Shown here piece after piece: positions 12,686-43,459 of a stretch of DNA of 64,000 nt. A program made the translations under genes and the position numbers. Each line of letters starts with the position of its first letter. Positions within the stretch are counted from its first letter, which is position 1. The notes below the pieces were generated by a model, which worked only from the letters and a program-made list of their open reading frames with translations, searched no databases and had not been told where the DNA came from. The DNA is from Bacteroidota bacterium (GTDB lineage Bacteria > Bacteroidota > Bacteroidia > UKL13-3): the NCBI GenBank assembly GCA_025359805.1, contig JANYDU010000030.1:22825-86824 (forward strand). Reading direction: 5' to 3'.

Positions 12686-13447
12686 TTATTTTTCCATACT
12701 CAATAATTCGAGTAATTCATTTTTTCTTCTTAAAGAAACTTCAAGTATAATTCCGTTATCCAATTCAACAGAACCATTTTTACCTTTTAGAAAACGTACA
12801 ATTTTTTTAATATTTACAAGAAAAGAATTATGAATTCGGTAGAAATGAACGGAAGTGAGAAGTTCTTCATAGTATCCAATGTTTTTTGAAGCAATTATTT
12901 TTTGATTGCCATCTAAATAAATAGTTGAATAATGGTTATCACTCTCTATGTAAATAATTTTATCGAGTGGCACAAAAATAATTTCATTGAGTGTATGCAC
13001 TGCCAATTTTTCAAATAGCTTTCTATGATTTAATGCCAATTTGAAATCCAACATTGAAGCTGGTTTCGCTCCCGATATTTTCAACTCTCTAAATTTATTA
13101 ATTGATGATTGCAGCTCATCATTATCAATGGGCTTCAGAAGATAATCCAATGCAGAAAATTTAATGGCTTGTAGGGCATATTTATCATAAGCGGTTGTAA
13201 ATATTACTTTAAAATTTATTTCTGTAATTTTTTGAAGTAATGTAAATCCATCACCACCTGGCATCTGAATATCTAAGAATAAAATATCAATTGTATTTTT
13301 ATGTTTTTCAATTAAGGATAAAGCCTCTTCAACTGATAATGCCGAACCAAGTATATTAATATTATTGTAATACTGATTAAAGAGCAGTTCTAAAGTATTA
13401 ATACATTTATGTTCATCATCAACAATAATTATGTTTATGGAATTCAT
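12686..13447 (-). CDS. LytTR-family response regulator (REC + LytTR)
   Basis: REC domain with the phospho-acceptor in ILFLDIQMPG. The C-terminal LytTR domain reads ...IESDNHYSTIYL...FYRIHNSFLVN. Confidence 0.85.
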   Translation of the reverse strand: MNSINIIIVDDEHKCINTLELLFNQYYNNINILGSALSVEEALSLIEKHKNTIDILFLDIQMPGGDGFTLLQKITEINFKVIFTTAYDKYALQAIKFSALDYLLKPIDNDELQSSINKFRELKISGAKPASMLDFKLALNHRKLFEKLAVHTLNEIIFVPLDKIIYIESDNHYSTIYLDGNQKIIASKNIGYYEELLTSVHFYRIHNSFLVNIKKIVRFLKGKNGSVELDNGIILEVSLRRKNELLELLSMEK

Positions 13448-24660: not shown

Positions 24661-26129
24661 GAACAGATTGGCTTAAAAAATATCCTTTCAGTACATTTTT
24701 AATTCCCGTATTTGTTTTTTTGCATGGAATAAATTACGCTTATGATTGGGTGAAAATAAATGATGTAATTTTGTTTTTTGGATACATCATATTAGCAACA
24801 ATCGGATTATTTTTACTCTCATTCATTTTATTCAAAGACACCATTAAAGCATCATTTTTCACTTCATTTTTGCTACTCATATTTTTTTATTTCGGGTATA
24901 TTCAAGATATGATTAGTGTTGCATCAGCAGTGTTTTTTCAATTAAAATATTATATACCATTTTTAGTATTAATTGCTGTAATTACATTTTATTTTATCAG
25001 AAAAATAAGGCGCGAACAATTAAGTAAACCGTTCTATTTTTTCAATATACTTTTCTGTATTTATGTATGTGTTGAAATTGTATTTTTAACTTTTACTATT
25101 TTTTCTGTACGTCAAGAACCATTAAAATTTTATGCTGATGAGAGTATAAATTTTACAGAAAAAATATCCCCGAAATCAAAACCAGATATTTATTTTTTGG
25201 TTTTTGATGAATATGCAAGTTCTCTATCACTCAAGCAAAATTTTGGCTTCGACAATAGTGATTTAGACACTTTTTTATTAAACAAAGGTTTTTTTATTGC
25301 TACACATTCAATGAGTAATTATGCAACAACTCCATTCTCTATTTCATCTACTCTAAACATTAATTATTTCAAAAATTTGCATAGAACAAAATATCCTGAA
25401 GATTTTCCAGCAGCAGAAAAATCAATGTACACCAATAAATTATTTTCATTTTTAAAAGATGAAGGATATAGCATTCATAATTTTTCGGTATTTGATTTTG
25501 AAGATGCCCCCTCACATCAAAAAAGCTTTGGAAGTGATTTGAGTATTAAAGTTATTACCCATAAATCGATGTTGCATGCTTTGGAAGTTGTTTATGAACA
25601 AATAAATAAAGATTATCCTAAAAAACAATTGGAGAAAACACTTCACGATTTTTCAACAACAATTAACAATAAAACTATTCAACCAAAGTTTATTTATCTA
25701 CATTTATTATTACCACATAATCCTTATGTTTTTAATGCTGATGGAAGTTTAAGAAGTGCATCTCAATACAATAAAAAAGCCGATGCTTACTCTATAAAAA
25801 GTTATCTCAATCAATTACAATTTTCAACCACAATTGTTAAACAAGTCGTCAATATCGTTTTATCATCACCCCAAAATAAATTAATTATTTTAGAAGGGGA
25901 TCATGGCTACAGATTAGTACCTATTGGAGTTGACTCTACATTTTACAAAAATTATGTGAGCACTAAAGAACATTTTAAAAACTTGAATGCTTATTATTTT
26001 TATGATAAAAACTATGTTTCTTTATCTGACTCTATTAGTCCTGTTAACTCATTTCGTGTTGTTTTAAATACCTATTTCAAAAAAGATATTCTATTGCTAA
26101 AAAACTCAGATAATAAAAATAAATATTGA
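24657..26129 (+). CDS. Polytopic membrane protein with an extracytoplasmic alkaline-phosphatase-superfamily (LtaS/EptA/sulfatase-like) domain
   Basis: About 5 N-terminal TM helices, then DIYFLVFDEYAS, SNYATTPFS, LLLPHNPY and EGDHGYR motifs. Confidence 0.65.
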   Translation: MRTDWLKKYPFSTFLIPVFVFLHGINYAYDWVKINDVILFFGYIILATIGLFLLSFILFKDTIKASFFTSFLLLIFFYFGYIQDMISVASAVFFQLKYYIPFLVLIAVITFYFIRKIRREQLSKPFYFFNILFCIYVCVEIVFLTFTIFSVRQEPLKFYADESINFTEKISPKSKPDIYFLVFDEYASSLSLKQNFGFDNSDLDTFLLNKGFFIATHSMSNYATTPFSISSTLNINYFKNLHRTKYPEDFPAAEKSMYTNKLFSFLKDEGYSIHNFSVFDFEDAPSHQKSFGSDLSIKVITHKSMLHALEVVYEQINKDYPKKQLEKTLHDFSTTINNKTIQPKFIYLHLLLPHNPYVFNADGSLRSASQYNKKADAYSIKSYLNQLQFSTTIVKQVVNIVLSSPQNKLIILEGDHGYRLVPIGVDSTFYKNYVSTKEHFKNLNAYYFYDKNYVSLSDSISPVNSFRVVLNTYFKKDILLLKNSDNKNKY

Positions 26130-28098: not shown

Positions 28099-29127
28099 TT
28101 AACGCAAACTGATATCAGCTGAATCTCTAAGCGTAGTAGGTGTATTTTTGGTGGATGCCAAATAGCCTTCGTTTGGCAAATTTCTTCCATAACTTTTCAC
28201 AATTACTTTATCATTTTTGAAAATATTTACAACAGTAAAACCAAAGAATTTTTCTTTTTCATCAGTAATCTTTTCAGTAAGTAAACTTCCTCCATTACCT
28301 GCAATAATTTGCCATGTTTTATTGGTGTGTGGTTGATGACGAAAATAAACATGATTATGCGCAGCAAGCATAGCTTCACAATTTGATTGTTCTAAAATAT
28401 TCCAAAACGAATCTCTATCCGAAATAAAATTATTCAACCCATCTTCATTTTGATATGGGAAAGCCGCTTTATGTCCGATAGCAAAAATATGTTTAGTATT
28501 TTTAGGCAATGCCATCAAATCTTTTTTAATCCATTTGTATGGAACCCTCCATTCTTTTCCAACCGGATCAGTATTTAAAATAATAAAATGCGTATTCAAA
28601 TAATCAAATGAATAGGTAAGCTTTTGCTGATTGGTTTGCAACTCGTCAGCTTCATTTATTTTAGGTCCATTTTTACCTGCAATATATTTTTGCATCACTC
28701 TAATCCAGGTTCTTTCGGCAGGTTCAGTTGAAGGTTTATTTTTCCCTCCCATCATTTCATGATTACCTGGAATTGTTACCAATTTTATTTTTGTGGTTGA
28801 TAATGTTGATTGCTCAAAAATAATTTTCCATGCGGTTAATTCTTTTGCTAATTGAATCGTATCAGTATAACCCATTACCAAATCCCCTGCAAAAAAAAGA
28901 TAGTGTGGTAGCGGTTTCATCAACGAAATATCTTCAAAGGTTTTTTTAAGTTGTTCTAAATTCGCTGTACTCGGATTGCTTTCATTTACATCGTGTTTAT
29001 CCACTCTATTACATCCAATCACTACAAATGAAAACAGTATTGTTTCCTCCTGCTTTTTTGTTGAAGAAATAATAAATGATGATGATAAAATTGAAATCAA
29101 ACAGAAAATTACAATGAGATTTTTCAT
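28099..29127 (-). CDS. Secreted calcineurin-like metallophosphoesterase with an atypical motif I
   Basis: Signal peptide, then GDLVMG, GNHEMM, GHKAAF and AHNHVY motifs. The position of motif I (GDxH) reads VVIGCNRVD. Confidence 0.7.
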   Translation of the reverse strand: MKNLIVIFCLISILSSSFIISSTKKQEETILFSFVVIGCNRVDKHDVNESNPSTANLEQLKKTFEDISLMKPLPHYLFFAGDLVMGYTDTIQLAKELTAWKIIFEQSTLSTTKIKLVTIPGNHEMMGGKNKPSTEPAERTWIRVMQKYIAGKNGPKINEADELQTNQQKLTYSFDYLNTHFIILNTDPVGKEWRVPYKWIKKDLMALPKNTKHIFAIGHKAAFPYQNEDGLNNFISDRDSFWNILEQSNCEAMLAAHNHVYFRHQPHTNKTWQIIAGNGGSLLTEKITDEKEKFFGFTVVNIFKNDKVIVKSYGRNLPNEGYLASTKNTPTTLRDSADISLR

Positions 29128-29204: not shown

Positions 29205-30599
29205 TTAGTGTTGATTTCCTTTTCCGTTTGATTGATAACAACCAATATCAATTCCAGGTTGAGTAATTTCTGTTGCGCCATAAATTGCATTAACAGGTAT
29301 TGGAGCAATTGCCGTAAAGCCTGTAAAGCCTTTTCCTATTGCAGGTGATGATGATTGTAAATGAAAATTAAAACCTGTTGCATAATTAATATCATTTAAA
29401 TGCGCAGTAGTTGAAGGCAAAGAGAAAGTAACAAACTTTGGATTATTTGCGCCTCTTAATGAAGCTGGCGGAGTATACACATCTCCTAACAAATATCCTG
29501 TTGGCAGAAATGATGGATTTGGAATATCAGTAGATTTGGGAATGGTAATATATCCTGTTGGATAAAATTGTGATGTTACATTATCAGAATCTCCATAGCG
29601 ATAATTATTTCCGTATTGCATATTAATAGTATCAGCCGCAGGGCTTCCAACAATTCTAAAAGAGAATTTACAGTTAACCATTAAATTATTATATGCAGTT
29701 CCTTTCGCTCCTTCTTCATAATTTAAACATCCACCACGCCCTGTTTGAACTTGTCTGTAACCACCATTAATATAAGTATTGTTAAACATATTTACATTGG
29801 TTTGAATTGGATTACCTCCTTTGTTGGAAGCCTTAGTTCCGTTAGTAGCTGTTCCCACAAAAAGATTATACGCCATGTCCCCAACTGTTCCACTTTTCGC
29901 ATTTAAACAATCACCACCAATATAACCTGCCTTTTCAAAAGTATTTCTCATGATATGAATTTTACCAGACTGAATACGAACAGCATCATCAATTGAGCCA
30001 TACAACCATGAATCTTCCATCACAAAGGAGCCGTTTGCATTTTGAAATAAGATGGTGTATGATTTGCTTCCTGCTTTGTTTCCATAAACAAGATACCCGT
30101 TATTGGTTCCAAAAGTAGCTCCTCCAAATTCAATATGTGTCCATTTTAAAACTAATAATGTACATGAAGTATCACAATTAATACCGCACCATTTTCCAGA
30201 GAATGCAGGGTCAACACTTGGATCTATTCCTGGCATATCAGTTTTAGTTATACCAGAAACGGAGATTTTATTTGGTTTATCTTTTGTACCTACAGAAATA
30301 AAAATTCCATACACAGCAATACTTGCCGATGCTGTTAAATTAACCGTAACACCTTCTTGTATTAAAACGGTATCACCTTTATTAATCACAACATCGCCAT
30401 CAATGGTGTATGTTTTGCCTGCCAACATGGTACCTTTAATACCACCATGTAATGGAGCGGCATCGCTAATTGGATTTGAAATTACTGGAGGAGGAACGGA
30501 AACTGTTGTAGTCTCATCTGAAGATGATTTTTTACAAGAGTTTAAGAATAGGAGGCCTGCAGATACTGCTACCAACCCTGTAATCATGATTTTGTTCAT
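29205..30599 (-). CDS. Lipoprotein, probably with a right-handed parallel beta-helix fold; partner of the upstream TonB-dependent receptor
   Basis: LFLNSCKKSSSDE lipobox with acidic residues after the Cys. Gly/Asn-rich turns recur (NNTYINGG, YNNLMVNC, MRNTFEKAG). The gene starts 29 nt after the receptor gene ends. Confidence 0.5.
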   Translation of the reverse strand: MNKIMITGLVAVSAGLLFLNSCKKSSSDETTTVSVPPPVISNPISDAAPLHGGIKGTMLAGKTYTIDGDVVINKGDTVLIQEGVTVNLTASASIAVYGIFISVGTKDKPNKISVSGITKTDMPGIDPSVDPAFSGKWCGINCDTSCTLLVLKWTHIEFGGATFGTNNGYLVYGNKAGSKSYTILFQNANGSFVMEDSWLYGSIDDAVRIQSGKIHIMRNTFEKAGYIGGDCLNAKSGTVGDMAYNLFVGTATNGTKASNKGGNPIQTNVNMFNNTYINGGYRQVQTGRGGCLNYEEGAKGTAYNNLMVNCKFSFRIVGSPAADTINMQYGNNYRYGDSDNVTSQFYPTGYITIPKSTDIPNPSFLPTGYLLGDVYTPPASLRGANNPKFVTFSLPSTTAHLNDINYATGFNFHLQSSSPAIGKGFTGFTAIAPIPVNAIYGATEITQPGIDIGCYQSNGKGNQH

Positions 30600-30628: not shown

Positions 30629-33466
30629 TTATAATTTAAATCGTAATCCTAATAAATAAGTTTGTCCGTAATAATCTTTTTGAACAATAATACTATCATC
30701 ACTATCTTGATTTGGAAGTGCTGAAATTCCTGTTCTATAAATATTGTGTTGACGAATTTCAAGTATGTATGGAGTATTAAGAATATTACCAATTTTACAG
30801 TAAATAGAAATTCTTTTATAGAGTCGTTTCTCCATCGAAAAATCCATCGTTGTCATCGCTCTTTGCCAATAATCTTGGCCCGCATATTGTGAAATTAAAT
30901 TGATACGGCTTCCTGTGTAAACCAATGCCAACTGAACATCAAGCCCAAGTTTTGAATTCTTATATAGTAACGATGCATTTCCAATATGAGCTGATTGACC
31001 TTGCAATGGGCGGGTTTCCGAAACTTGATAATTTGTTATAGAACCCGATGGGTATGAATTACGTGTTACAAAAGTTCTATTAACTGTGATAGAAGAATTG
31101 GTATAAGTATAATTTACAGATGCTCCAAAATATCCAATGTATTTTGTAACCACAGCTTCAAAACCAAAGTTTACTGCATTGCCATAATTAGTTGGTTTAA
31201 GAATAGTGTTTGAAATTCCATTCTGAAAATAGGCATACTCTACAGGATTTATAATGTCTTTATAAAACACACCAAATAAAATTTGATCCAATCCTTTACC
31301 TAAAAACTCATATCTAATATCATAATTATTTGCCTGTGTATGCTTTAAAAGTGGATTACCTGATTCATCAAAATATTCTCCTGTTATGGTAAAAGGAATA
31401 ATCTCATAATAACTTGGTCGGCTAATCGAAGCATAGTATGATGCTCTGATATTTTGATTTTTAGTTAATGAATATTTTAAATGAAAGCTAGGTAAAATAT
31501 CCATGTATGTTTTACTTCCAGTTTTGCCTGCTTGAGTTATGGGAATTGCTGTTTCAAAACTTTGAGAAGTATTTTCTACCCTCACTCCGCCAATTAATTG
31601 AAGTTTAGTAATTGGGGTAAATTTTAATTGCCCGTAGTAGGCTGAAATATCTTCATTAAAAGTGTAATTATTGGCATCATTGGCAGAAGTATTAGAATAT
31701 AATTTCCACGTAATTTGATCTATACTATTATTATAATCATTGTTATTAAATTTAGTAGAGGCCACTGCTGAATTTAAAACTGTTTCGTCATAAAAATTAT
31801 CACGCGTTTTATGCCTATACATACCTCCTACTTTTATTTCAATATCCGTTTTAAAAATATGAGGAGTGTATGTTACATTAACATATCCCGATAAATCTTT
31901 ATCCGTATTATGCATCCAATAATGATGCGCTTTATTTATAGTTGCTGATGCCGCCCCTGTACTATCAGGTTTATATGATTGATATTGATTATCCCATTGA
32001 GTCCAATCAGGAGTTTGGCTACTTGCCACAGAGTATGCACCAATCCAATCTACTTTTAAATTAGATGAAATATCGTGATCGCCATGCAAGGTTCCATTAT
32101 AAATTGTTTGATTGGTTTGTTTAAATCTGTAATACCTTGTTACAATTGTTTGTGCCGGACCTGTTCTATGAATTTGCCAATCCGAATCAATAATAGTTCT
32201 CACAGAAGCTTCATTTAATTGAACCAATAAATTATAGAAACTTATTTTATTTTTTTTGTTGATTTGGTAATCAATTTTAGCATTTAAACCAATACGTGTT
32301 TGTTGTGTTGAATAATTTCTGCTTTGCACAAAATTCATTGCAGGGGCATTACCCGGAGCCGGATCAGCTTGCGTAGATGCATTTGGTAACACTACAAAAG
32401 AGTTAGTTGCTCTATAATTATTGGCATAAGAACCTGCAACTAAAACGCCCAATTTTTTATTAAAAAATCTGTTCCCTAATGTTACTCCAAACATTGAATT
32501 AGTAGGTGCAGTAATATCGGTATATTTCATACTCGAATTTGGAAAATCAGAACCTACAGGTTTATAATTTGGTCCGTTTATTTCAATAGGTGATTTAGGA
32601 TTGGACGATTTAAAATCATAACTATTATATCCTCTATCAAAAAGTAATTGACTATAACCTATTGCAACATTTGCATTCACTAATAATTTATCAGGTGCAT
32701 TTTTCATTACCATATTCATTGCACCACCAATTGCATCACCTTCCATACTTGGAGTTAAAGCTTTTATTACTTCTAAACGTTCTAATAAATCAGATGGGAA
32801 AATATCCATTGGAACATATCTGTTTTTAGGGTCAGGACTTGGAATTTTTATCCCATTTACTAAGGTATAATTATACCGTTTGTCCATTCCTCTAATAATG
32901 GCATATTGCCCATCACCTGTACTACTGCGCTCAATTGACACACCTGAAACACGTTGTAATACATTGGCAACAGTGAGATCTGGAGAGATTTGAATAGCTT
33001 TTGCTGAAACAGAATTAATAATGCTTGGCGCATTCATTTCAGTTTTTCGAGAAAATAAATCTGACTCTTTATTTATGGAAGAATCTCTAACACTTATTTC
33101 ATCTATTTCTGTTGAAGTTGATTCCATCAAAAATTTAATTTCAACTTCCTTATCACCCTGTTTTATTTCAACTTCCTTTTCTTGATTTTTATATCCAACA
33201 TAATTACAACCAACAATATATTTACCAGGAGTAATTCCTCTAATTTTAAATTCTCCTTCGAGATTCGTAGCTGTATTTAATTTTGTATTTTTTACATAAA
33301 TACTTGCACCTATAAGAATTTCTTTTGTTTTAGAATCACGTACTTTACCCTCCAATTTAACACCATTTGGAGTTCCGTCATTTGTGGATGCGAGAGCCAA
33401 TAATGAAAATGAAAAGAAGAATAAAAACAAACCGTAATGAATATGCTTAGTAAAATTTGATTGCAT
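30629..33466 (-). CDS. TonB-dependent receptor (CarboxypepD_reg-like + plug + 22-strand barrel), not SusC-type
   Basis: 945 aa. The N-terminus has GKVRDSKTKEILIGASIYV. Plug motifs are GVSIERSS...IRGMD. The C-terminal strand ends in LGLRFKL. Confidence 0.85.
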   Translation of the reverse strand: MQSNFTKHIHYGLFLFFFSFSLLALASTNDGTPNGVKLEGKVRDSKTKEILIGASIYVKNTKLNTATNLEGEFKIRGITPGKYIVGCNYVGYKNQEKEVEIKQGDKEVEIKFLMESTSTEIDEISVRDSSINKESDLFSRKTEMNAPSIINSVSAKAIQISPDLTVANVLQRVSGVSIERSSTGDGQYAIIRGMDKRYNYTLVNGIKIPSPDPKNRYVPMDIFPSDLLERLEVIKALTPSMEGDAIGGAMNMVMKNAPDKLLVNANVAIGYSQLLFDRGYNSYDFKSSNPKSPIEINGPNYKPVGSDFPNSSMKYTDITAPTNSMFGVTLGNRFFNKKLGVLVAGSYANNYRATNSFVVLPNASTQADPAPGNAPAMNFVQSRNYSTQQTRIGLNAKIDYQINKKNKISFYNLLVQLNEASVRTIIDSDWQIHRTGPAQTIVTRYYRFKQTNQTIYNGTLHGDHDISSNLKVDWIGAYSVASSQTPDWTQWDNQYQSYKPDSTGAASATINKAHHYWMHNTDKDLSGYVNVTYTPHIFKTDIEIKVGGMYRHKTRDNFYDETVLNSAVASTKFNNNDYNNSIDQITWKLYSNTSANDANNYTFNEDISAYYGQLKFTPITKLQLIGGVRVENTSQSFETAIPITQAGKTGSKTYMDILPSFHLKYSLTKNQNIRASYYASISRPSYYEIIPFTITGEYFDESGNPLLKHTQANNYDIRYEFLGKGLDQILFGVFYKDIINPVEYAYFQNGISNTILKPTNYGNAVNFGFEAVVTKYIGYFGASVNYTYTNSSITVNRTFVTRNSYPSGSITNYQVSETRPLQGQSAHIGNASLLYKNSKLGLDVQLALVYTGSRINLISQYAGQDYWQRAMTTMDFSMEKRLYKRISIYCKIGNILNTPYILEIRQHNIYRTGISALPNQDSDDSIIVQKDYYGQTYLLGLRFKL

Positions 33467-33671
33467 GTGTTACAAATAATTTTGGCGCAATTAGAGGTAT
33501 ATTTTTGAAGTAAATTTTATCTCCAAATGATTTAATCAAATGATAACTGCACGTTAAGAATTAAGTAATTTAAAAATGCCATTTACTTAACCTTTCATTC
33601 ACATTGAAATTCGTACATATTATTTTTATGTTAATTTAACCACAACCTATAAATAGCATAATTATAGACTG

Positions 33672-35212: not shown

Positions 35213-38194
35213 ATGAAAAAAATTCTATTCAACTTATTATCATTATCACTTGTTATACTTTCGGCAAATGAAAGTAAAGCACAACAAACTTTAATTCATT
35301 ATTGGCATTTTAATAATCTCGTTAATCCTATTCCTACAGGTGCTGTTAGTCCATCTACCTTACCTAGTATTAAAGCTGATTTTTCAACAATTGATACAAA
35401 TAAAGCAGTTGTTTCTTATCAGATTCTTGCAGGAACGGTTGGAAATGCAAAAACCTATTGGGATTTCGTTTCACCTGGTGATACAATTAACTCACGTTTA
35501 GGTGTTGTTGCTGGTTTAGGTTTTAGACCACGTAACCCAAGTGATAGTATGCAATTGGTATTTTATATTCCTTCTACAGGCTTTCAAAATTTAAATCTCA
35601 AATGGGAGGTGCAACGTTCAAGTGTTGGTGGTGGTGCTCCTCAGTTGATTTATGATTATAGTATTGATAGTGGTGCAACTTGGAAAAACTCAGGTCTATC
35701 CATAACAATTGATTCTACAGGATATGCCACTTGGAAAGCCATGTCAGTATCAATTAATAATGATGCGTTAGCATATGGAAACAGTAAACTGATTTTTAGA
35801 ATGCGATTTGCTGGACCAACCAATATAGGTACATCAGGTAACGTGCGATTTGATAATTTTACTGTAGAAGGAGATCCAATACCAACTGGTCCTAAATTTT
35901 ATAATATTGGTCAAATCAACACAACAAATCCAACAACTGGAGTTGCCGATTCATTAAACGGACATTATACCATTAGAGGTTTAGTGTATGGATTTAATCA
36001 AAGAACACCAAGTGCTGGTGCTACTTTTTTATTAAGAGATAATACTGGTGGTGTTACCGTATTTAATGTATCAAAAACTTTTGGTTACACGGTTACTGAA
36101 GGTGATAGTATTGTTGTTCCTGGAGTTGTTCAATCATTTAGAGGACTTATTGAATTTGCTCCTGATACCATTATTAAAATTGCATCGGGCAAAACCATTA
36201 AAACGCCAACTATTATAACTACATTAGGAGAAGCCAACGAAAATGATTTAGTTAAAATGAATAACTTAGTATTTTACACCACTCCATCTGGAGCAAATTG
36301 GCCAACAGCATCTACCAATATTTTATGTCATACTCAAAATTTAACGGATACAATTATTGTTCGTGTTTTGGCTGGAAGTGCTTTAGCAGGAACCGCATTA
36401 CCTTCATCAAGTTTATTTAATGTAACAGGGATGGTTCAACAATTTAGCACAAGCAGTGCTGCACCTTTTGCATTTAATGGATATGAAATTTTACCACGAA
36501 CAGCATCAGACATTTTATCGGGATTAGCTCCTCCTGATGCAGTAACAAATATTACTTCAACATCAAATTTAACAACACAAACTTTTAGTTGGACAAAACC
36601 TTCAACTTACATTGATGCAAGTATGACTACACTTGTTTTTATAAAATCAGGAAATGCAATTACACAAGGAACACCAAATAAAAATGCAATTTCATATACT
36701 GCAAATTCTGTTTTCGGATCGGGCACTTCATATCAAAATGATGTTGCTGCAAAATGTGTATTAAACTCCGATAACAGTTCAATTACAGTTACAGGTTTAA
36801 CTCAAGGAACTGCCTATTATGCTTTAGTATATGTAGCGAGAAATACCGATTCTGTTTATTCAACTGCGGCAATTGCTAATGCAACTACAACAGATAATTT
36901 ACCAATTTCGGTAACCGCTATTTCTGTTACTGGAACAACTGCAACATCAGCAACAATTAAATGGACTAAACCTGTAGGATATGATAATGCTGCACATTCA
37001 ACAATTGTTTTTGTAAAAGCTGATAATGTTATCACAGCAGGAACACCAACTAATACAGTTGCAAGCTATACTGCAAATACAACTTTTGGTTCGGGAGCTA
37101 TTTATCAAAATGATGCTGCTGCATTTTGTGTATTTAATAATGATACCAATACTGTTACCGTTTCAAATCTTATTCAAGGAAAAACATATAATGTAATTGT
37201 TTGGGTGGTGAGAGATGCCGATTCAAAATATGCAACTACACCAACAATAGGAAGCGGATCACCATTACCTCCTCCTCCACCTCCATCAAGCATTAAACTT
37301 ATTCACTACTGGAACTTCAATAATATAAATACAGGAACTGCGGGTGCTACCGTTGCAAACTCTTTCAAAGATTGGGCTGTTGAAGCAGACTACTCTTCAT
37401 TAGATACTGCAAAAGCAAAAATATACTACAGAACATATCCTGGAACTTCAGATGCATATATGACTTATTGGGATGCAGTAACTGGCGATACAACAAACCA
37501 ACGCATGAATGCAATTGCAGGAAACGGAATGAGAACACGTAACCCAAGCGATAGCATGCAAGTACTTTTTTATATTCCAACATCACATTACAAGAATATT
37601 AAAATCAGTTATGCTTGTCAAAAATCAAGTGTTGCTTCTGGTGCTTATCAACAAAATTATTCTTATAGTATTGATGGCGGGCAAAATTGGAAAACAACAG
37701 GTTTATCAAAAACTTCTGACTCAACTGCAGGTATTGCATATACACGTATGGGTGTTAATTTTACCACTGCCGATACCATGGCTTATAACAATCCAAACTT
37801 AGTTTTTAGAATTAGATTTGCTGTTGACCCAACAGGTACTATTGGTAATCCAGCGGGTTCATCAGGTAATAATCGTTTTGATAATTTTGCTGTGGAAGGA
37901 GATACTACAACTGTTTCTCCACTAACCGATCATACAGGAATTTTTGAAACTACGAATTCAATTTCTGAAGTTTATTTGTATCCTAATCCATCTACAAATA
38001 ATATTACCATTAGCACCAATTCAAGTGAAATAAAAACAATTGTGATTATGAATATTGCAGGACAAGAATTATACAATTTAAAACAAGAAGGTAAAGATAT
38101 TACTGTTGATGTTTCGAATTTTAGAAGCGGTATTTATTTTGTAAATGTGATTGAAGGAAATAAAAATTACAGAACTAAATTCATTAAAAATTAA
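35213..38194 (+). CDS. Modular T9SS cargo/surface protein, 993 aa: HYW-domain, OB-fold-like module, 2 FN3-like repeats, poly-Pro, HYW-domain, T9SS CTD
   Basis: Signal peptide. Internal duplication: residues ~27-221 resemble ~696-897. The P7 linker is at 37270-37290. The tail is LYPNPSTNNITI...IMNIAGQELY...GIYFVNV. Confidence 0.8.
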   Translation: MKKILFNLLSLSLVILSANESKAQQTLIHYWHFNNLVNPIPTGAVSPSTLPSIKADFSTIDTNKAVVSYQILAGTVGNAKTYWDFVSPGDTINSRLGVVAGLGFRPRNPSDSMQLVFYIPSTGFQNLNLKWEVQRSSVGGGAPQLIYDYSIDSGATWKNSGLSITIDSTGYATWKAMSVSINNDALAYGNSKLIFRMRFAGPTNIGTSGNVRFDNFTVEGDPIPTGPKFYNIGQINTTNPTTGVADSLNGHYTIRGLVYGFNQRTPSAGATFLLRDNTGGVTVFNVSKTFGYTVTEGDSIVVPGVVQSFRGLIEFAPDTIIKIASGKTIKTPTIITTLGEANENDLVKMNNLVFYTTPSGANWPTASTNILCHTQNLTDTIIVRVLAGSALAGTALPSSSLFNVTGMVQQFSTSSAAPFAFNGYEILPRTASDILSGLAPPDAVTNITSTSNLTTQTFSWTKPSTYIDASMTTLVFIKSGNAITQGTPNKNAISYTANSVFGSGTSYQNDVAAKCVLNSDNSSITVTGLTQGTAYYALVYVARNTDSVYSTAAIANATTTDNLPISVTAISVTGTTATSATIKWTKPVGYDNAAHSTIVFVKADNVITAGTPTNTVASYTANTTFGSGAIYQNDAAAFCVFNNDTNTVTVSNLIQGKTYNVIVWVVRDADSKYATTPTIGSGSPLPPPPPPSSIKLIHYWNFNNINTGTAGATVANSFKDWAVEADYSSLDTAKAKIYYRTYPGTSDAYMTYWDAVTGDTTNQRMNAIAGNGMRTRNPSDSMQVLFYIPTSHYKNIKISYACQKSSVASGAYQQNYSYSIDGGQNWKTTGLSKTSDSTAGIAYTRMGVNFTTADTMAYNNPNLVFRIRFAVDPTGTIGNPAGSSGNNRFDNFAVEGDTTTVSPLTDHTGIFETTNSISEVYLYPNPSTNNITISTNSSEIKTIVIMNIAGQELYNLKQEGKDITVDVSNFRSGIYFVNVIEGNKNYRTKFIKN
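35291..35875 (+). repeat. HYW-domain copy 1 (LIHYWHFNN ... RPRNPSDSMQ ... RFDNFTVEGD)
   Basis: Roughly two-thirds aa identity (by eye) to copy 3. It shares the exact 24-nt string cgtaacccaagtgatagtatgcaa with copy 3. Confidence 0.8.
36530..37260 (+). repeat. Two FN3-like coding repeats (period 372 nt) of the family expanded at 60836-63876
   Basis: The W codons of the WTKP motif are at 36590 and 36962. Both copies carry YQNDxxAxC. Confidence 0.8.
37298..37903 (+). repeat. HYW-domain copy 2 (LIHYWNFNN ... RTRNPSDSMQ ... RFDNFAVEGD)
   Basis: More diverged than copies 1 and 3, but colinear with them. Confidence 0.75.
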
Positions 38195-38216
38195 TTTTAG
38201 TTTTATCATAAAACAG

Positions 38217-38250
38217 AAGCAGGTTATCCAAATGGATAGCCTGCTTTTTT
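38217..38250 (+). terminator. Rho-independent terminator after the 993-aa gene
   Basis: AGCAGGTTATCC-AAAT-GGATAGCCTGCT (one wobble pair) followed by TTTTTT. Confidence 0.7.
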
Positions 38251-38349
38251 GTGATTAGACTTTTAAATAACACGAATTGATTTATATTATTTACTTAATA
38301 TGAAAATAACATTTACCTAACAGCACAAATTTAGTTTCGCAAAAAAAAT

Positions 38350-39588
38350 ATGAAAAAATTTCTTCAAATAGCATTCTTAAGTTTTTGCTTTAGCTTATCA
38401 ATTAATCAATCAAATGCACAACAAAAACTTATTCATTATTGGCACTTTAATAATTTAGTAAATTACACAACAGTAGCTGTTAATCCATCAACACTACCAG
38501 CTATAAAAGCAAATTACTCCACATTGGATACAAATAAAGCAGTTGTTGCTTATAAAATTTTAGCAGGAACTGCTGGTAACGTATTAACGTATTGGGACAA
38601 TGTGACCCCTGGCGACACTGTAAATGTACGATTAGGACAGCCTGCTGGCTTAGGCTACAGACCTCGTAACCCAAGTGATAGTATGCAACTGATGTTTTAT
38701 ATTCCAACAACAGGGTATCAAAATATCACCATCAAATTCGAAACACAAAAATCAAGTGCAAGTGCTGGTGGAGCAATTGACTCATTTGATTACAGCATAG
38801 ATAGTGGCATCACGTGGAGAAATTCTGGCGTATCCTTATTGTATGCCTCGAACGTTACAACTTGGACAGCTACTCCGGGTATTTCAGTAAATATAAATAG
38901 CGATCCCTTGGCCAATAATAATAATAAATTAGTTTTCAGAATTAGATTTGGTGGTGGCGGAACAACTGGAACTACAGGCAATGTTAGGTTTGATAATATT
39001 ACTATTGAAGGCGATACTCTTATAGCAACTCCTGTTACATTATTAAACTTCAGTGCAAAAATTATTGCCCATTCAAAAGTTAATTTAACGTGGCAAACTA
39101 CTTCCGAAATAAACAATGATTATTTTATAATTGAAAAAAGTATTGATGAGCAAAATTGGATCGAAACAGAAAAAATAAAAGGTGCGGGAAATAGCAATTC
39201 AGTTAAAACATATCAAACAAATGATGAAGTTGAGAATGGAATTGGAGTAATTTATTACCGACTAAAACAAGTTGATTTTAATGGCGAGGTAACCACTTTT
39301 AACCCAATAGTGATTAACCTAAACAATAATAATTTACCAACTATTATTTCAGTAGAAAATCCTATCCAAAATAATACTTGTAACATTAAACTATTTTCCG
39401 AAAATCAAACTCAATTAACTGTTACAATTAGAAATGTTTTAGGAAATGTTATTCAGCAAACATCCTACGTTACCAAAGGAAATACACTACTTAATTTAGA
39501 TGTTGCCTCTATAAATAATGGAATTTATTTTTTAGAAATAAAAGATGGGAACAATATTGTATCGAGCAAAAAAATCCTTAAACAATAA
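38350..39588 (+). CDS. T9SS cargo protein, 412 aa: HYW-domain, Ig/FN3-like domain, T9SS CTD
   Basis: Signal peptide, then HYW-domain copy 3. A LLNFSAK...LTWQT...YRLKQVDFNG beta-sandwich follows. The tail is NPIQNNTCNIKL...GIYFLEI. Confidence 0.8.
   Translation: MKKFLQIAFLSFCFSLSINQSNAQQKLIHYWHFNNLVNYTTVAVNPSTLPAIKANYSTLDTNKAVVAYKILAGTAGNVLTYWDNVTPGDTVNVRLGQPAGLGYRPRNPSDSMQLMFYIPTTGYQNITIKFETQKSSASAGGAIDSFDYSIDSGITWRNSGVSLLYASNVTTWTATPGISVNINSDPLANNNNKLVFRIRFGGGGTTGTTGNVRFDNITIEGDTLIATPVTLLNFSAKIIAHSKVNLTWQTTSEINNDYFIIEKSIDEQNWIETEKIKGAGNSNSVKTYQTNDEVENGIGVIYYRLKQVDFNGEVTTFNPIVINLNNNNLPTIISVENPIQNNTCNIKLFSENQTQLTVTIRNVLGNVIQQTSYVTKGNTLLNLDVASINNGIYFLEIKDGNNIVSSKKILKQ
38428..39015 (+). repeat. 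HYW-domain copy 3 (LIHYWHFNN ... RPRNPSDSMQ ... RFDNITIEGD)
   Basis: See copy 1. Confidence 0.8.
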
Positions 39589-39607: not shown

Positions 39608-39640
39608 GAAAGGCTTTGGCAAATTGTGAAGGCCTTTTTT
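39608..39640. terminator. Weak hairpin between convergent genes
   Basis: AAAGGC (39609-39614) pairs with GCCTTT (39632-39637), followed by a T-run. The loop is long (17 nt). Confidence 0.3.
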
Positions 39641-40400
39641 ATTTGCCTGAAATACTTTTTAGTTTCTCTATAAACACTTCTTTTTTTCTTCTTGAAACTT
39701 CAACAGAACTATCATCAGCCATAATAATTACACCACCTTCTCCTTTTATATAACGTTTAATATGTGCAAGGTTGATAAGATGAGAATGGTGTACCCGAAT
39801 AAAATTATGCGCGTTTAATAACTCTTCAAAATCTTTTAAAGTTTTAGAAACTAAAATGGGTTTACTATTGATTAAATAAAATTTAGTGTAATTATCATCC
39901 GACTCACAACGAATAATATCCTCTGTGTTAACAAAAATTAAACCATCAAGCGTTGGCAATGCCAATTTGCTTTTAGTGGTTTGAATGTTTCTAATATTTT
40001 GAAGTAAAATATCGAGTTGTGAATTATCTTTTCCTTTACTTCTTAATTTAATAATTACCTTCTCAATGGCAGATTCTAAATCATCTGCATCAATTGGTTT
40101 CAATAAATAATCCACTGCACTAAACTTAAAAGCTTTAATAGCATATTGATCGTAGGCTGTTGTAAATATTACTTCAAAATCTTTTTCCTTGATGGATGCC
40201 AGCATATCAAAACCATTTCTATGTGGCATTTCAATATCTAAAAAAACTAAATCTGGTTTCAAATTTTTGATAAGTAATTCTCCTGACTCTGCATCTTCAG
40301 CAAGTCCTATTAGTTCGATTTTATCATCAAACTCTTCTAACATTTTTTTGAGGGCATTTCGTCCTCTCAATTCATCTTCAATAATTATTGTACGTATCAT
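39639..40400 (-). CDS. LytTR-family response regulator (REC + LytTR), paralog of 12686..13447
   Basis: DLVFLDIEMP REC motif and a CESDDNYTKFYL...FIRVHHSHLINL LytTR domain. Same length (253 aa) as the other copy. Confidence 0.85.
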   Translation of the reverse strand: MIRTIIIEDELRGRNALKKMLEEFDDKIELIGLAEDAESGELLIKNLKPDLVFLDIEMPHRNGFDMLASIKEKDFEVIFTTAYDQYAIKAFKFSAVDYLLKPIDADDLESAIEKVIIKLRSKGKDNSQLDILLQNIRNIQTTKSKLALPTLDGLIFVNTEDIIRCESDDNYTKFYLINSKPILVSKTLKDFEELLNAHNFIRVHHSHLINLAHIKRYIKGEGGVIIMADDSSVEVSRRKKEVFIEKLKSISGK

Positions 40401-43400
40401 ATAGTAAGTTGAAATGGAATGGTGATAATAACTTTTGTACCAGCACTATTGCCTTCATCATCATACAAATCTATTATTTCTGCTGATGCCTGTGCTTTAT
40501 TTAATTGATTTAAAATAGCTAATCTTTCATTAGTTACTTTTAATCCTTTTGAAATATGTGAATGCGCTTGTTTGTTTCTAATTTCTCTTGATTTTTTTCT
40601 GCCTATTCCATTATCAATTACCTCACAAACCAATAATTCTTTATTTTGTAAATGAAATTTCACAGTGAGTTCTCTATCATTTTCTTTATGCATTAAGCCA
40701 TGCCAAATAGCATTTTCAATAAATGGTTGAATGAGCATAGTTGGAATTTCTATCTTATAAATATTTACATCCGGAAAAATATTTAATGAATAATTAAACC
40801 CATTATTAAATCTTAATGATTCAATTTCGATATAGAGTTTTAAGAAATCAATTTTTTTGGCAAGTGTAATGGTTGACGTTTCAGAATTATCTAAAATTTG
40901 CCTGATGAGTTTAGCAAACTTGCTCAAATATTTTGACGCTTCTTTAATATTATTATTTAAAATAAAGTCTTGAATAGAGTTTAAAGCATTAAAAATAAAG
41001 TGAGGATTCATCTGCGCGCGCAAAGCTTTTAACTCTAATTCGCTCAATTGTTTATTAATTGATGTTCGATGTTGTTCTTGTTTTCTGATAAATGAAATAC
41101 GCAAATAAACAGCAACCCAAACCACACAAACAATGATTAAAAAAATGATTAAAACAAACCACCATCTCTGCCAAAAAGGGGGAGTAATAATAATTTGAAT
41201 AGCGTTTATTTCATCACTCCAAATACCATCATTATTGGTTCCTTTAATTTTTAAAACATAATTACCAGGGCGCAAACTATTATAGCGAGCAATATTTGAT
41301 GTACCTGAATACACCCAATTATAATCATACCCTTCGAGCTTATATGCATATATATTTTTTTCTGGTGCGGTGTATTCAAGAGCCGAAAAATTAAAGGTTA
41401 AGTAATTTTGGAAATAAGAAAGTGTAATGAGTTTGATAGCAAGTAATGAATCAATATTTAATTCGTTATCAAACACTTTAAATGAAGTAAGTCTTATTAA
41501 TGGCTTTGTTTTATTCTCTTTAATATCAATCGGATTAAAAAAATTAAACCCCTCAACACCTCCAAATAATAAATATCCATTTGAGGTTATATAATTAGCC
41601 CCTCCATTAAATTCATTACTTTGTAAACCATCCAATACAGAATAATTTTTAAATGTTTGTGCCTCTATGGAATACTTTGAAATACCAAAATTTGTGCTTA
41701 TCCAAAGGTTGTTTTGATTATCTTTTTCGATACCATAAACCAAATCATTTGCCAAGCCATTTGATATATTAAAATTTTTATAGGTTTCATTATGCGTATC
41801 AAACCTAATAAAACCATTGCCCATTGTGCCTATCCAAAGTATTCCTGTACTGTCTAAAATCATTGTACTCATGGTATAATCATTCTCTCCATTATTCTCA
41901 GTACGAAAAAAAACTTTTGTATGATGCCCATCCCATTTAATAATTTGGCTTGAAAAAGCAATCCAAATATTTCCATTTTTATCCTCCACCAACGACCTAA
42001 TATTTTTTATTTTATCAACTGAAATAGATAAAGGAACAACTCTGTTTTTTTTCTCATCAAACTCAAACAAACCATTTCCTCCTCCTAATAAAACTTTTCC
42101 ATTATGGCAAATTAAAATGGTTTTAATAAAGGTCTCAGAGTTGATATTTGAATAGGGTATTTCAGTAAATTTATTTGTTGAGGTATTAAATAATTCTAAG
42201 CCTAATGCAGTTCCTAATAATAAATTTTCACCCAATTGATCAATACAAAATATCACATCCGATGATCTATTTTTATTGTTATTAGGATATCGTATAAATT
42301 TATTTTCAGCAGTAATCCATTTATTTAATCCTTCGCCATCAGTTCCTATCCAGATATTTTTTTCTGAATCTTCAAAAAATGAAAGTATAAAATTACTGCT
42401 TACCGAATTTTTATTAAACGGATTATTTTTATACGTATTAAAACTTGATTTATTAAAATTTACTTTGTTAAGCCCTCCTCCATAAGTTCCTATCCAAATA
42501 ATTCCAGAATGATCCTCACAAAAAGCTATCACATAATTTTTGCTAATAGAATTGGGAACTATGGGATTCAATTCATAAAATTCGGGAGTGGCATTTTCGT
42601 TTTCAAAAAACAATAACCCATTGTTAGTTCCCACCCAAATTCTTTTTGTTTTATCAACCAATATTGCAGTTACTATATTTAAAGTATGATGAATTTTTGA
42701 TGATACTAATTTGCTATAGTCTTTTATTATTTTAGTTTTACTGTTGATAGAAATAAGTTCATTTGATTCGGATGCTGCCCAAATTGATTTTGAATTTTCA
42801 TCATATTGAACAAAAGAAAATTTGTATGCAGAATTTAAATAAGCAGCTAATTTATTTGTTAAAACATCAATTTTTTTTAACTCATAATTTGATGCAAAAA
42901 CTACTTCTTGCGCATTTATTTCAGTAATATCCGAGATGTTGGAAATGGGAATAGAACTAAAGTTTTTATATGTTGTATTAAACTTCCAAATTTCTTTTTG
43001 AGTGCATAACCAAATTTCTTTTCGACACCTGCTTTTAAAAAAACATGTAATACGACATTCTTTAAAATCAGGAATTTTAAACTCTTCAAACTGTTCTGTT
43101 ATTTTATTAAAACAACTAATGGATTTGGAATGAACAATCCATAAATTTTTCTGTTCATCTTCAAGAATTCCTTTTACAAAATTATAGGGCAATGATGTTT
43201 TTATAGCACTTGAATGCCTGTAAATTTTAAAACTTTTACCATCATATTTATTCAAACCATCTTCTGTACCTACCCAAATAAATCCATCTGCATCTTGCAA
43301 AATACATTTTGCCGAATTTTGAGAAAGCCCATTCTTAATATCTAAATGTTCAAAGTCAATTTGTGAATTGGCTTGAGCACATAAATAAAAAAATATGAAA

Positions 43401-43459
43401 ACAAAAAATGTAATAAACGCCCTCATGTAGCAAATATAATAGGATTTGACGCTGCGCAA
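40397..43459 (-). CDS. Sensor histidine kinase: beta-propeller repeats + Y_Y_Y + TM + LytS-type His_kinase/HATPase
   Basis: DGFIWVGTEDGLNKYDG-type repeats, then YAYKLEGYDYNW, a TM segment and LKALRAQMNPHFIFNALNS. The alternative start at 43426 (MRAFITFF...) gives a cleaner signal peptide. Confidence 0.85.
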   Translation of the reverse strand: MRSVKSYYICYMRAFITFFVFIFFYLCAQANSQIDFEHLDIKNGLSQNSAKCILQDADGFIWVGTEDGLNKYDGKSFKIYRHSSAIKTSLPYNFVKGILEDEQKNLWIVHSKSISCFNKITEQFEEFKIPDFKECRITCFFKSRCRKEIWLCTQKEIWKFNTTYKNFSSIPISNISDITEINAQEVVFASNYELKKIDVLTNKLAAYLNSAYKFSFVQYDENSKSIWAASESNELISINSKTKIIKDYSKLVSSKIHHTLNIVTAILVDKTKRIWVGTNNGLLFFENENATPEFYELNPIVPNSISKNYVIAFCEDHSGIIWIGTYGGGLNKVNFNKSSFNTYKNNPFNKNSVSSNFILSFFEDSEKNIWIGTDGEGLNKWITAENKFIRYPNNNKNRSSDVIFCIDQLGENLLLGTALGLELFNTSTNKFTEIPYSNINSETFIKTILICHNGKVLLGGGNGLFEFDEKKNRVVPLSISVDKIKNIRSLVEDKNGNIWIAFSSQIIKWDGHHTKVFFRTENNGENDYTMSTMILDSTGILWIGTMGNGFIRFDTHNETYKNFNISNGLANDLVYGIEKDNQNNLWISTNFGISKYSIEAQTFKNYSVLDGLQSNEFNGGANYITSNGYLLFGGVEGFNFFNPIDIKENKTKPLIRLTSFKVFDNELNIDSLLAIKLITLSYFQNYLTFNFSALEYTAPEKNIYAYKLEGYDYNWVYSGTSNIARYNSLRPGNYVLKIKGTNNDGIWSDEINAIQIIITPPFWQRWWFVLIIFLIIVCVVWVAVYLRISFIRKQEQHRTSINKQLSELELKALRAQMNPHFIFNALNSIQDFILNNNIKEASKYLSKFAKLIRQILDNSETSTITLAKKIDFLKLYIEIESLRFNNGFNYSLNIFPDVNIYKIEIPTMLIQPFIENAIWHGLMHKENDRELTVKFHLQNKELLVCEVIDNGIGRKKSREIRNKQAHSHISKGLKVTNERLAILNQLNKAQASAEIIDLYDDEGNSAGTKVIITIPFQLTI

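Follow-up and report, generated by a model that had tools for sequence, protein, structure and literature searches.

In a 64,000-nucleotide stretch from the genome of a Bacteroidota bacterium (lineage UKL13-3; NCBI GenBank assembly GCA_025359805.1, contig JANYDU010000030.1, positions 22,825 to 86,824), referred to here as the window, we found two adjacent genes for cargo proteins of the type IX secretion system (T9SS) that together carry three copies of one uncharacterised domain of about 195 amino acids (aa). On the evidence of its predicted structure, the domain forms a beta-jelly-roll family of the CenC/CBM4-like, MAM-like and reelin-subrepeat-like fold class, and represents neither a new fold nor a new system. 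The family is real, widespread and unannotated, and it is not surprising in kind. Below we describe the domain with its fold class, distribution and position in proteins, the conserved gene clusters in which it is encoded and an upstream element that its genes share with those of their partners. Based on this context, we propose, with a probability of about 0.5, that the domain is a non-catalytic surface binding module that captures substrate within a phosphate-scavenging regulon.

Three copies of one domain in two adjacent secreted proteins

The three copies, of about 195 to 202 aa, could be aligned end to end over 207 columns, of which 79 are invariant. Among the invariant columns are the motifs HYWxFNN and RxRNPSDSMQ, the Asp-box YSIDxGxxW (present as YSIDSGATW, YSIDGGQNW and YSIDSGITW) and RFDNxxxEGD. 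Every copy scored more than 240 bits against the hidden Markov model (HMM) of the family, which places the similarity at the protein level far above chance, and the envelopes of this independent model coincided exactly with the boundaries that an earlier note, made from the sequence alone, had given for the copies (Table 1). That note had also assigned the copies to two adjacent T9SS cargo genes. In agreement with this, both products start with a signal peptide and end with a type A C-terminal sorting domain (CTD) that scores above the curated cut-offs of both PF18962 (27 bits) and TIGR04183 (23 bits). Copies 1 and 3 directly follow the signal peptide, as had been noticed, with LIHYW adjoining ..SKAQQT in the first protein and ..SNAQQK in the second. 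They share 65% of their residues and 68% of their nucleotides, close to the two-thirds identity that had been estimated by eye, while copies 1 and 2 are 49% identical at the amino acid level. The exact 24-mer across the RNPSDSMQ motif was likewise recovered (CGTAACCCAAGTGATAGTATGCAA, at 35531 and 38665), and copies 1 and 3 also have a 21-mer in common (at 35393 and 38527).

A separate family within the jelly-roll class

Single copies as well as profiles built from 64 and 145 sequences were searched against Pfam (2025), NCBIfam (2026) and the PDB. On the domain, all Pfam-A and NCBIfam models stayed below their cut-offs, both in the window proteins and in 145 separate copies taken from many genomes. 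By sequence, the two profiles retrieved from the PDB only CTDs, plus sialidase-type Asp-boxes at E > 0.04. The domain is thus indeed unrecognised, and the outcome on which the earlier note had staked this claim, a clean mapping to a described Pfam or carbohydrate-binding module (CBM) family, was not seen in the Pfam, NCBIfam and PDB searches. CBM families were absent from the matches of the 145 copies at E <= 0.1 and from those of the whole window proteins at E <= 1. Members of the family carry public names such as 'hypothetical protein', 'T9SS type A sorting domain-containing protein' and 'Ig domain-containing protein'. Since these names come from other parts of the proteins and no model matches at threshold, the domain has so far escaped annotation.

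Below threshold, Reelin_subrepeat-B (PF21471, a profile of 127 positions with a gathering cut-off of 27 bits) matched copy 1 with 22.5 bits in a stretch confined to profile positions 61-98, and gave 13.1 bits for copy 3. In the window, the sub-threshold matches to this model and to BNR both fall on the Asp-box YSIDxGxxW. When the 145 copies were scanned, weak matches to Reelin_subrepeat-B were obtained for 52 (best E 2e-4), to Tli3 for 20, to BNR for 14 and to MAM for a single copy (E 0.042). The 52 reelin matches cover profile positions of about 40-98, which correspond to the Asp-box hairpin and to less than half of the profile. Multi-copy proteins pass 27 bits for Reelin_subrepeat-B only as the sum of several weak stretches; no single copy does.

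The AlphaFold2 model of copy 3, calculated from 64 sequences (pLDDT 85.2, pTM 0.86), is an all-beta jelly-roll of 11 beta-strands. When the model was compared with the PDB using Foldseek, the best match was CBM4-2 (1k42, E 1.1e-5, template-modelling (TM) score 0.51/0.58). Other CBM matches were the CBM4 structures 3p6b and 3k4z (TM 0.47-0.48) and members of families CBM22, CBM16 and CBM35, with 4xup and 2zey also among the matches to CenC-type modules. In addition, we found the K2/K3 cleaved-adhesin domains of Lys-gingipain (3km5 and 3m1h; E ~2e-3, TM ~0.42), reelin repeats (2ddu, E 4.8e-3; 5b4x, E up to ~7e-3) and, at the fold level only, MAM domains (2c9a and 5l73). In the viral library BFVD, the matches were CenC-like and CBM6 modules of phage tail fibres. 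Identity to the PDB neighbours was 8-15% throughout, with TM scores of 0.4-0.57. Scores in this range, together with the failure of every sequence model, argue for a separate family within the jelly-roll class. With CBM, MAM, adhesin and reelin neighbours of an all-beta jelly-roll, the jelly-roll or lectin-like beta-sandwich predicted in the earlier note proved right at the level of the fold class.

The CenC-type CBMs (CBM4, CBM22, CBM16; CBM_4_9) resemble the domain most, being jelly-rolls of similar size that are non-catalytic, modular and often repeated. However, identity to them is only ~8-14%, no CBM model of Pfam matches any of the 145 copies, and the present domain differs from them by its Asp-box, its RxRNPSD and GNxRFDN motifs and the lack of glycoside hydrolases attached to it or encoded nearby. 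Reelin subrepeat B is the source of the only sequence-level signal, and both are jelly-rolls with an Asp-box hairpin (S-x-D-x-G-x-T-W; 2ddu, 5b4x in reelin), whereas reelin itself is a eukaryotic extracellular signalling protein from an unrelated context. The cleaved-adhesin domains of gingipains and HagA (K2, K3) are jelly-roll adhesin modules of ~175 aa that are repeated in Bacteroidota T9SS cargo, like the domain described here. At ~10% identity they give no sequence match, and their ligands, in an oral pathogen, are host proteins and haem, whereas the present family is environmental and is encoded in transporter/phosphoesterase clusters. The likeness to the MAM domain (PF00629) is one of fold and does not extend to the sequence.

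Across the 145 copies, the following residues are nearly invariant (copy-3 numbering): Y4, W5, F7, N8, D57, N66, R78, R80, N81, P82, D84, P93, S109, G114, Y122, S123, D125, N165, G184, N185, R187, D189 and N190. In the AlphaFold model, they sit in the first strand, a hairpin loop, the Asp-box and the last strand. The domain has a single Asp-box hairpin and four motifs of polar and aromatic residues that hardly vary.

Distribution and position of the domain in proteins

An exhaustive profile search of 1.84 billion representatives yielded at least 450 clusters at 50% identity with E <= 1e-30. The profile included CTD columns, and the 226,618 matches at E <= 0.001, a figure inflated by proteins that share the CTD only, were not used. 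A scan with one genome per species confirmed at least 549 genomic stretches. Carriers were found in Chitinophagaceae/Flavipsychrobacter, Bacteroidales, Flavobacterium, Ignavibacteriota, Kapaibacterium and Gemmatimonadota. The closest stretch, at 77%, comes from a metagenome-assembled genome (MAG) of a freshwater Bacteroidetes (locus L004; related loci are given here by L numbers).

A search with copy 3 found proteins of ~300 aa that consist of a signal peptide, the domain and a CTD, and in Flavobacteriia (Flavobacterium, Nonlabens and Epilithonimonas) we found lipoprotein versions with 2-3 copies and no CTD. Among 149 representatives, the number of near-full-length copies per protein ranges from 1 to 5. 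The first copy begins within 45 aa of the N-terminus in 128 of these representatives, and in 105 a copy ends within 130 aa of the C-terminus, directly before the CTD. As T9SS cargo is held at the cell by its C-terminus, an N-terminal copy is the part of the protein that lies farthest from the cell. In 94 multidomain members, the domain is fused mainly to Ig-like adhesin modules (Big_2, SprB, Flg_new_2, Ig_3 and PKD), in proteins that reach 3600 aa; CotH (4), CHB_HEX_C (4), LTD (3), choice-of-anchor I (1) and DUF5689 (1) were also found. There was no recurrent catalytic partner and no glycoside hydrolase among the fusion families listed for these 94 members.

Many domain genes are clustered with outer-membrane transporters and phosphoesterases

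The open reading frames (ORFs) of 79 related loci were clustered and the clusters were annotated. Three arrangements were distinguished. Arrangement A (11 loci) comprises, in this order, an SdiA-regulated/Phytase-like beta-propeller, a porin, a domain protein, one or two T9SS proteins that are endonuclease/exonuclease/phosphatase-like (EEP-like), and another domain protein. All eight members of the propeller cluster match PF06977/PF13449, and the porin is assigned from Porin_O_P in one clustered member and from existing annotations of cultured Nonlabens and Epilithonimonas. Arrangement B (14-15 loci and the window) comprises, again in order, a TonB receptor, a lipoprotein of ~470 aa, an EEP-like protein, a 400-aa T9SS protein or a metallophosphoesterase, and a domain protein. 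In arrangement C (L020, L023 and L071), a TonB receptor is followed in turn by a 217-aa protein, a domain protein, a 634-aa protein and an HD phosphohydrolase. Marker genes of arrangement A or B were present in at least 21 of 48 well-flanked loci, those with 15 kb or more. Furthermore, the domain gene adjoins a metallophosphoesterase gene in Parasediminibacterium paludis, and in a Gemmatimonadota MAG it has Porin_O_P on one side and CYTH on the other, in a neighbourhood that also includes phosphonate-binding, phytase-like and phosphodiesterase genes. The TonB receptor of L001 has a PhoB/PhoR-like pair beside it. Glycoside hydrolase, polysaccharide lyase and carbohydrate esterase domains were not found among the conserved neighbours of the domain genes, nor was a SusC/SusD pair. 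Such neighbours suggest substrates that contain phosphate more than they suggest a classical breakdown of glycans.

In the Flavobacteriia loci L078 (5068-6318), L080, L081 and L082, a domain lipoprotein opens a tight operon and is followed by an SdiA-regulated/phytase-like protein, Porin_O_P and small T9SS proteins. One of the latter, the 293-aa protein of L078, is a divergent copy of the domain without the RNPSDSM motif. We found no usable description of the SdiA-regulated/porin operon in the literature.

In Flavobacterium johnsoniae, depletion of phosphate strongly induces the gene clusters PUSIII and PUSIV (Lidbury et al. 2020, PMC8115612). PUSIII encodes a TonB transporter (PF07715, PF13715), the hypothetical lipoprotein FI, the T9SS-CTD proteins Fjoh_3854 and Fjoh_3855, which have no Pfam domain, and an S41 peptidase, while PUSIV encodes phoBR, OprP, a TonB transporter and the lipoprotein FII (PMC8115612). 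FI was the most abundant exoprotein in that study, and modelling suggested that FI and FII may bind or hydrolyse plant glycans (Lidbury et al., PMC8115612). When compared by gene content, PUSIII and PUSIV match arrangements B and A in their make-up, which consists of a TonB transporter or OprP, a lipoprotein, T9SS-CTD proteins and phosphoesterases. In the window, the TonB receptor, the lipoprotein, the metallophosphoesterase (Metallophos), the EEP-like protein and the domain proteins are co-localised in the same way. The ~470-aa lipoproteins have an invariant Cys21 and are encoded directly after a TonB receptor that is not of the SusC type; they have no relative in Pfam, NCBIfam or the PDB, and the profile of the EEP-like family did not match the PDB either. 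By analogy, the lipoprotein is possibly the counterpart of the Pi-induced FI/FII of F. johnsoniae, or else a 'lid' of the transporter.

Two further systems are similar in outline. Polysaccharide utilisation loci (PULs) encode a surface-exposed non-catalytic binding protein beside an outer-membrane TonB transporter and hydrolases, and the role proposed here for the domain would correspond to that of their surface glycan-binding or SusD-like proteins. Unlike PULs, the present clusters have no SusC/SusD pair, use a T9SS CTD anchor instead of or besides a lipid, and encode phosphoesterases and not CAZymes. The LTD domain (PF00932) also occurs as an N-terminal or repeated non-catalytic module in secreted proteins with EEP nucleases/phosphatases and CotH, and in several members of our family LTD and CotH are fused to the domain or encoded beside it. 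LTD, however, has a smaller Ig-like fold and shows no sequence or structural match to the present domain.

An upstream element shared by domain genes and their partners

The sequence GTTAYCA-N4-ATTAA is common to the upstream regions of the TonB-receptor genes, and an exact copy is present in the window (Table 1). Allowing at most one mismatch, we found 19 sites in 22.3 kb upstream of cluster genes compared to 4 in 67.7 kb of other intergenic DNA of these loci. The element is thus enriched ~14-fold upstream of the domain genes and their partners, and 12 of the 19 sites are located directly upstream of domain genes. It was seen in the window and in L008, L018, L023, L024, L028, L029, L033, L039, L057, L069, L071, L075 and L078. 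The element reads as a direct repeat, TTAYC / TTAAG, with a period of 11 bp. Direct repeats with this geometry are typical of OmpR/PhoB-type regulators, and from its sequence we regard the element as a candidate operator of such a regulator. Our literature search returned nothing usable on a Bacteroidota Pho box. A scan for sigma-70 promoters gave 39 sites where 35 were expected; Bacteroidota use a different promoter consensus.

A possible role in phosphate scavenging and its alternatives

According to the model that we propose, the domain would be exposed at the cell surface, held there by a T9SS CTD in proteins like those of the window and by a lipid anchor in the lipoproteins of Flavobacteriia. 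It would usually form the mature N-terminal end of the protein, farthest from the membrane anchor, and often be present in several copies. There it would capture substrate for an outer-membrane nutrient-acquisition system, with uptake taking place through a TonB-dependent receptor and its partner lipoprotein or through an OprP-type porin. Secreted or periplasmic phosphoesterases (EEP-like, phytase-like beta-propeller, metallo- and HD-phosphohydrolase) would act alongside, and the physiological role of the whole would be the scavenging of phosphate from organic or polymeric phosphorus compounds. A binding function, a phosphate-related ligand and the regulation are what we infer as most likely from the clusters and the upstream element. 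The ligand-binding role that the earlier note suggested, with a glycan or a nucleic acid as ligand, is plausible.

Several observations weigh against a phosphate-scavenging binding module. About half of the loci have no phosphate-related neighbour within 10 kb, and the neighbours there are heterogeneous, with CotH, LTD and CYTH recurring. The EEP assignment of the neighbouring protein is based on sub-threshold Pfam matches and motifs. No significant pectin-lyase/beta-helix signal was detected in the lipoprotein (Beta_helix in 1 of 10 members, E 0.81, in a Pfam scan of the family at E <= 1), and its equivalence to FI/FII is one of position only. A Flavobacterium query made to link the family to Fjoh_3854/3855 retrieved many lipoprotein homologues from Flavobacteriia, and no F. 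johnsoniae entry was among the best 120 matches listed. The pattern of the upstream element derives in part from 4 of the sites that it matches, and three of the 19 counted sites were used for it. Finally, a plain CBM would not normally have so many invariant polar residues (R78, R80, N81, D84, R187, D189 and N190), which could point to a metal site or an active site.

Three other explanations of the domain were considered. A classical CBM that binds polysaccharide, from plant or algal cell walls or from the cell's own surface glycan, in clusters dedicated to glycan utilisation would agree with the best structural neighbours (CBM4, CBM22, CBM16, CBM6, CBM35 and other glycan-binding modules) and with the modelling of FI/FII of the analogous clusters as possible plant-glycan binders or hydrolases (PMC8115612). 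We nevertheless consider it rather unlikely: glycoside hydrolases, polysaccharide lyases and esterases are absent from the listed fusion partners of the 94 members and from the conserved neighbours, the TonB receptor is not of the SusC type and a SusC/SusD pair is missing, the genes that recur nearby encode phosphoesterases and a porin of the phosphate-selective type, and no copy matches CBM_4_9 or any other CBM model of Pfam, even at E 0.1. It is unlikely, too, that the domain is a generic T9SS adhesin for contacts between cells or with surfaces, a spacer or a structural cap that plays no particular part in nutrient uptake and whose phosphate-type neighbourhood is a lineage-specific coincidence. 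The combination of an outer-membrane channel with phosphoesterases is repeated in three arrangements across Flavobacteriia, Chitinophagia, Ignavibacteriota and Gemmatimonadota, the upstream element is common to domain genes and partners, and the very strong conservation of the polar motifs favours a specific site over a spacer. These points have to be set against the frequent fusion to Big_2, SprB, Flg_new_2, Ig_3 and PKD in very long proteins, the half of the loci that lack phosphate-type neighbours, and the likeness to the adhesin domains of gingipains and HagA, which are themselves T9SS cargo.

That the domain is itself an enzyme, such as a jelly-roll phosphodiesterase, lyase or transferase whose substrate is a polymer of the surface or the environment, appears very unlikely. 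Tandem arrays of 2-5 copies per protein are what one expects of binding modules and not of catalytic domains, the top structural matches are all non-catalytic modules, and dedicated hydrolases are encoded next door. What an enzyme would explain is the large near-invariant polar set in the 145 copies (R78, R80, N81, D84, N66, D57, R187, D189 and N190), and jelly-roll enzymes do exist, GH16 and PL7 being known examples. A bolder form of the phosphate-scavenging model is possible, although we regard it as doubtful. In that case, the domain would be the founding member of a family of modules that specifically bind substrates containing phosphorus (phytate, extracellular nucleic acid, polyphosphate or phosphorylated polymers). 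It would capture substrate for a widespread, Pho-type-regulated outer-membrane scavenging system of Bacteroidota, Ignavibacteriota and Gemmatimonadota that has so far not been described at the molecular level, the invariant Arg, Asn and Asp residues would form an anion- or metal-mediated site, and GTTAYCA-N4-ATTAA would be the operator.

Bacteroidota play a major part in the recycling of organic phosphorus in soils and waters, yet most of the surface proteins encoded in their phosphate-starvation clusters are labelled 'hypothetical'. One of these components now has a defined domain, a fold, a known distribution over hundreds of species in three phyla, conserved partners and a candidate operator. 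The family is a clear candidate for a new Pfam/NCBIfam model, which would annotate thousands of 'hypothetical' T9SS and lipoprotein genes. Should the phosphate link fail, it would be an ordinary new family of CBM-like surface modules.

History of the copies

The earlier note took the similarity of copies 1 and 3 as a sign of recent duplication or gene conversion, and on this point our results disagree with it. The synonymous divergence (dS, Nei-Gojobori) between copies 1 and 3 was 1.56, equal to that of the pairs with copy 2 (1.55-1.58), and is saturated. At the 126 residues that are identical in copies 1 and 3, the same codon is used at 71, compared to 63 expected from the codon usage of the window. 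When both proteins were kept fixed and codons were drawn from this usage, an in-register run of at least 24 nucleotides appeared in 12% of the simulations, so that the shared 24-mer has P = 0.12.

We then built a tree of the copies that included the orthologous loci L004, L008, L009 and L019. Copies 2 and 3 each grouped with their positional orthologues, at 62-78% identity; copy 2 is orthologous to the C-terminal copies of L004, L008 and L019 (62-71%). Copy 1, on the other hand, fell in the copy-3 clade, away from its positional orthologues. Its identity to the N-terminal copies of the orthologues in L004 and L008 is 47%, while those two copies share 71% with each other. When the protein was compared part by part with the L004/L008 orthologues, identity was 55-84% in the middle module, the Fn3-like modules and copy 2 and 48-50% in copy 1. 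Since copy 1 is divergent while the rest of the protein is conserved, the N-terminal copy was swapped in one lineage, and these comparisons support an old domain swap at the N-terminal position of the 993-aa protein. The swap could have run in either direction, as the N-terminal copy of L009 also falls close to the clade of copies 1 and 3.

Identity between copies 1 and 3 of this genome is 66%, between copy 1 and copy 3 of L004 it is 67%, and between the two copy 3s it is 78%. As copy 1 is equally close to both, the split between copies 1 and 3 predates that between this genome and L004, with no homogenisation since. A recent duplication or ongoing gene conversion between the adjacent genes would account for the 24-mer and the 21-mer and for the grouping of copy 1 with copy 3 instead of with the N-terminal copies of L004 and L008. 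Given the saturated dS, the near-expected number of identical codons, the P value of the 24-mer and the equal distances to both copy 3s, we judge it highly improbable.

Organisation of the window around the domain genes

Table 1. Features of the domain genes and their neighbourhood (positions within the window).
Feature	Position	Strand	Residues	Basis and remarks
Calcineurin-like metallophosphoesterase	28099..29127	-		PF00149, E 1.8e-8; recurs in 4-5 loci
464-aa lipoprotein	29205..30599	-		No Pfam/NCBIfam match; always adjoins the TonB receptor, 15 loci
TonB-dependent receptor	30629..33466	-		CarboxypepD_reg, Plug and barrel, not SusC-type; conserved partner, 15-16 loci
GTTAYCA-N4-ATTAA, exact copy	33532..33547	-		Divergent TonB-receptor/EEP promoter region
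EEP-like T9SS cargo, 461 aa	33701..35086	+		Upstream of the domain genes; conserved partner, 17-18 loci
T9SS cargo gene, 993 aa	35213..38194	+		ORF, Pfam/NCBIfam matches; orthologues in L004, L008, L019, L009
Signal peptide, 993-aa protein	35213..35290	+	1-26	..ANESKAQQT, read from the sequence
Domain copy 1	35291..35875	+	27-221	Alignment and HMM envelope, 242 bits
Middle module	35876..36547	+	222-445	~215 aa; separate, unannotated, repeatable module
Two Fn3-like modules	36548..37282	+	~446-690	Sub-threshold matches; internal repeat visible in the sequence
Domain copy 2	37298..37903	+	696-897	After the PPPPPP linker; HMM 241 bits, alignment
T9SS type A CTD, 993-aa protein	37976..38191	+	922-993	PF18962 49.4 bits, TIGR04183 52.5 bits
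Intrinsic-terminator-like hairpin	38215..38248	+		15-bp stem and T run, between the two genes
T9SS cargo gene, 412 aa	38350..39588	+		ORF, Pfam/NCBIfam; L004 orthologue 78% over the domain
Domain copy 3	38428..39015	+	27-222	Copy used for the AlphaFold model
T9SS type A CTD, 412-aa protein	39358..39585	+	337-412	PF18962 37.9 bits, TIGR04183 35.5 bits

The 993-aa protein consists, in this order, of a signal peptide, copy 1, a middle module, two Fn3-like modules, a poly-Pro linker, copy 2 and the CTD. Its mature N-terminus is probably Gln, as judged from known signal-peptidase I substrates of Bacteroidota. In the Fn3-like region, the Pfam matches below threshold are fn3 (E 3.6e-4) at aa 567-669 and NDNF-Fn3 at aa 500-552. 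The middle module has no match in Pfam or the PDB, and its AlphaFold model reached a pLDDT of 36 from an alignment of 4 sequences only. An OB-fold like those of ExeM/NucH nucleases was considered for it at first and then dropped. By local phmmer searches, it was found in tandem four times in protein P0088 and in L030 and twice in protein P0195. P0077 and P0195 of the representative library are 82-83% identical to it; given these relatives, the empty result of a word-index protein search with the middle module looks like a gap in sensitivity.

The strong terminator divides the 993-aa gene from the 412-aa gene. The product of the latter consists of a signal peptide, copy 3, an unannotated beta-rich module of ~114 aa and the CTD. 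This module (39016-39357, aa 223-336) contains the segments ..LLNFSAK..LTWQT..YFIIEKS..YYRLKQVDFNG... Its sole family match is a weak one to DUF3244 that overlaps the CTD, and the region in front of the CTD in the EEP-like neighbour is not related to it. A 108-aa antisense ORF (38790-39116, minus strand), recorded as lying wholly within copy 3, is most likely a shadow ORF and not a gene.

The EEP-like neighbour matches PF03372 with E 5.5e-4, below the cut-off, and the motifs YNV, GDFN and WYDH are invariant in its family. Its CTD (29.3 bits for PF18962 and 24.3 bits for TIGR04183) is also above the cut-offs. By eye, an invariant Lys is found in this family where the canonical metal-binding Glu of the 'LQE' motif would align, the window protein reading PDILGLVKM, and from its sequence the family may be an atypical or inactive member of its class. 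On the other side of the divergent promoter region, the metallophosphoesterase gene has the same operon direction as the genes for the TonB receptor and the lipoprotein.

A LytTR response regulator and a Y_Y_Y/beta-propeller histidine kinase flank the 412-aa gene (39639-43459, minus strand). A paralogous pair is encoded at 12686-16395 on the same strand, the two kinases being 31% identical. The flanking pair was dropped as a part of the system, as it is conserved beside the domain gene in 2-3 loci only. A few kb upstream of the cluster, on the plus strand, lie genes for a ClsB-type cardiolipin synthase (21582-22745; NF008427, 285 bits against a cut-off of 281) and for a sulfatase-superfamily protein (24657-26129).

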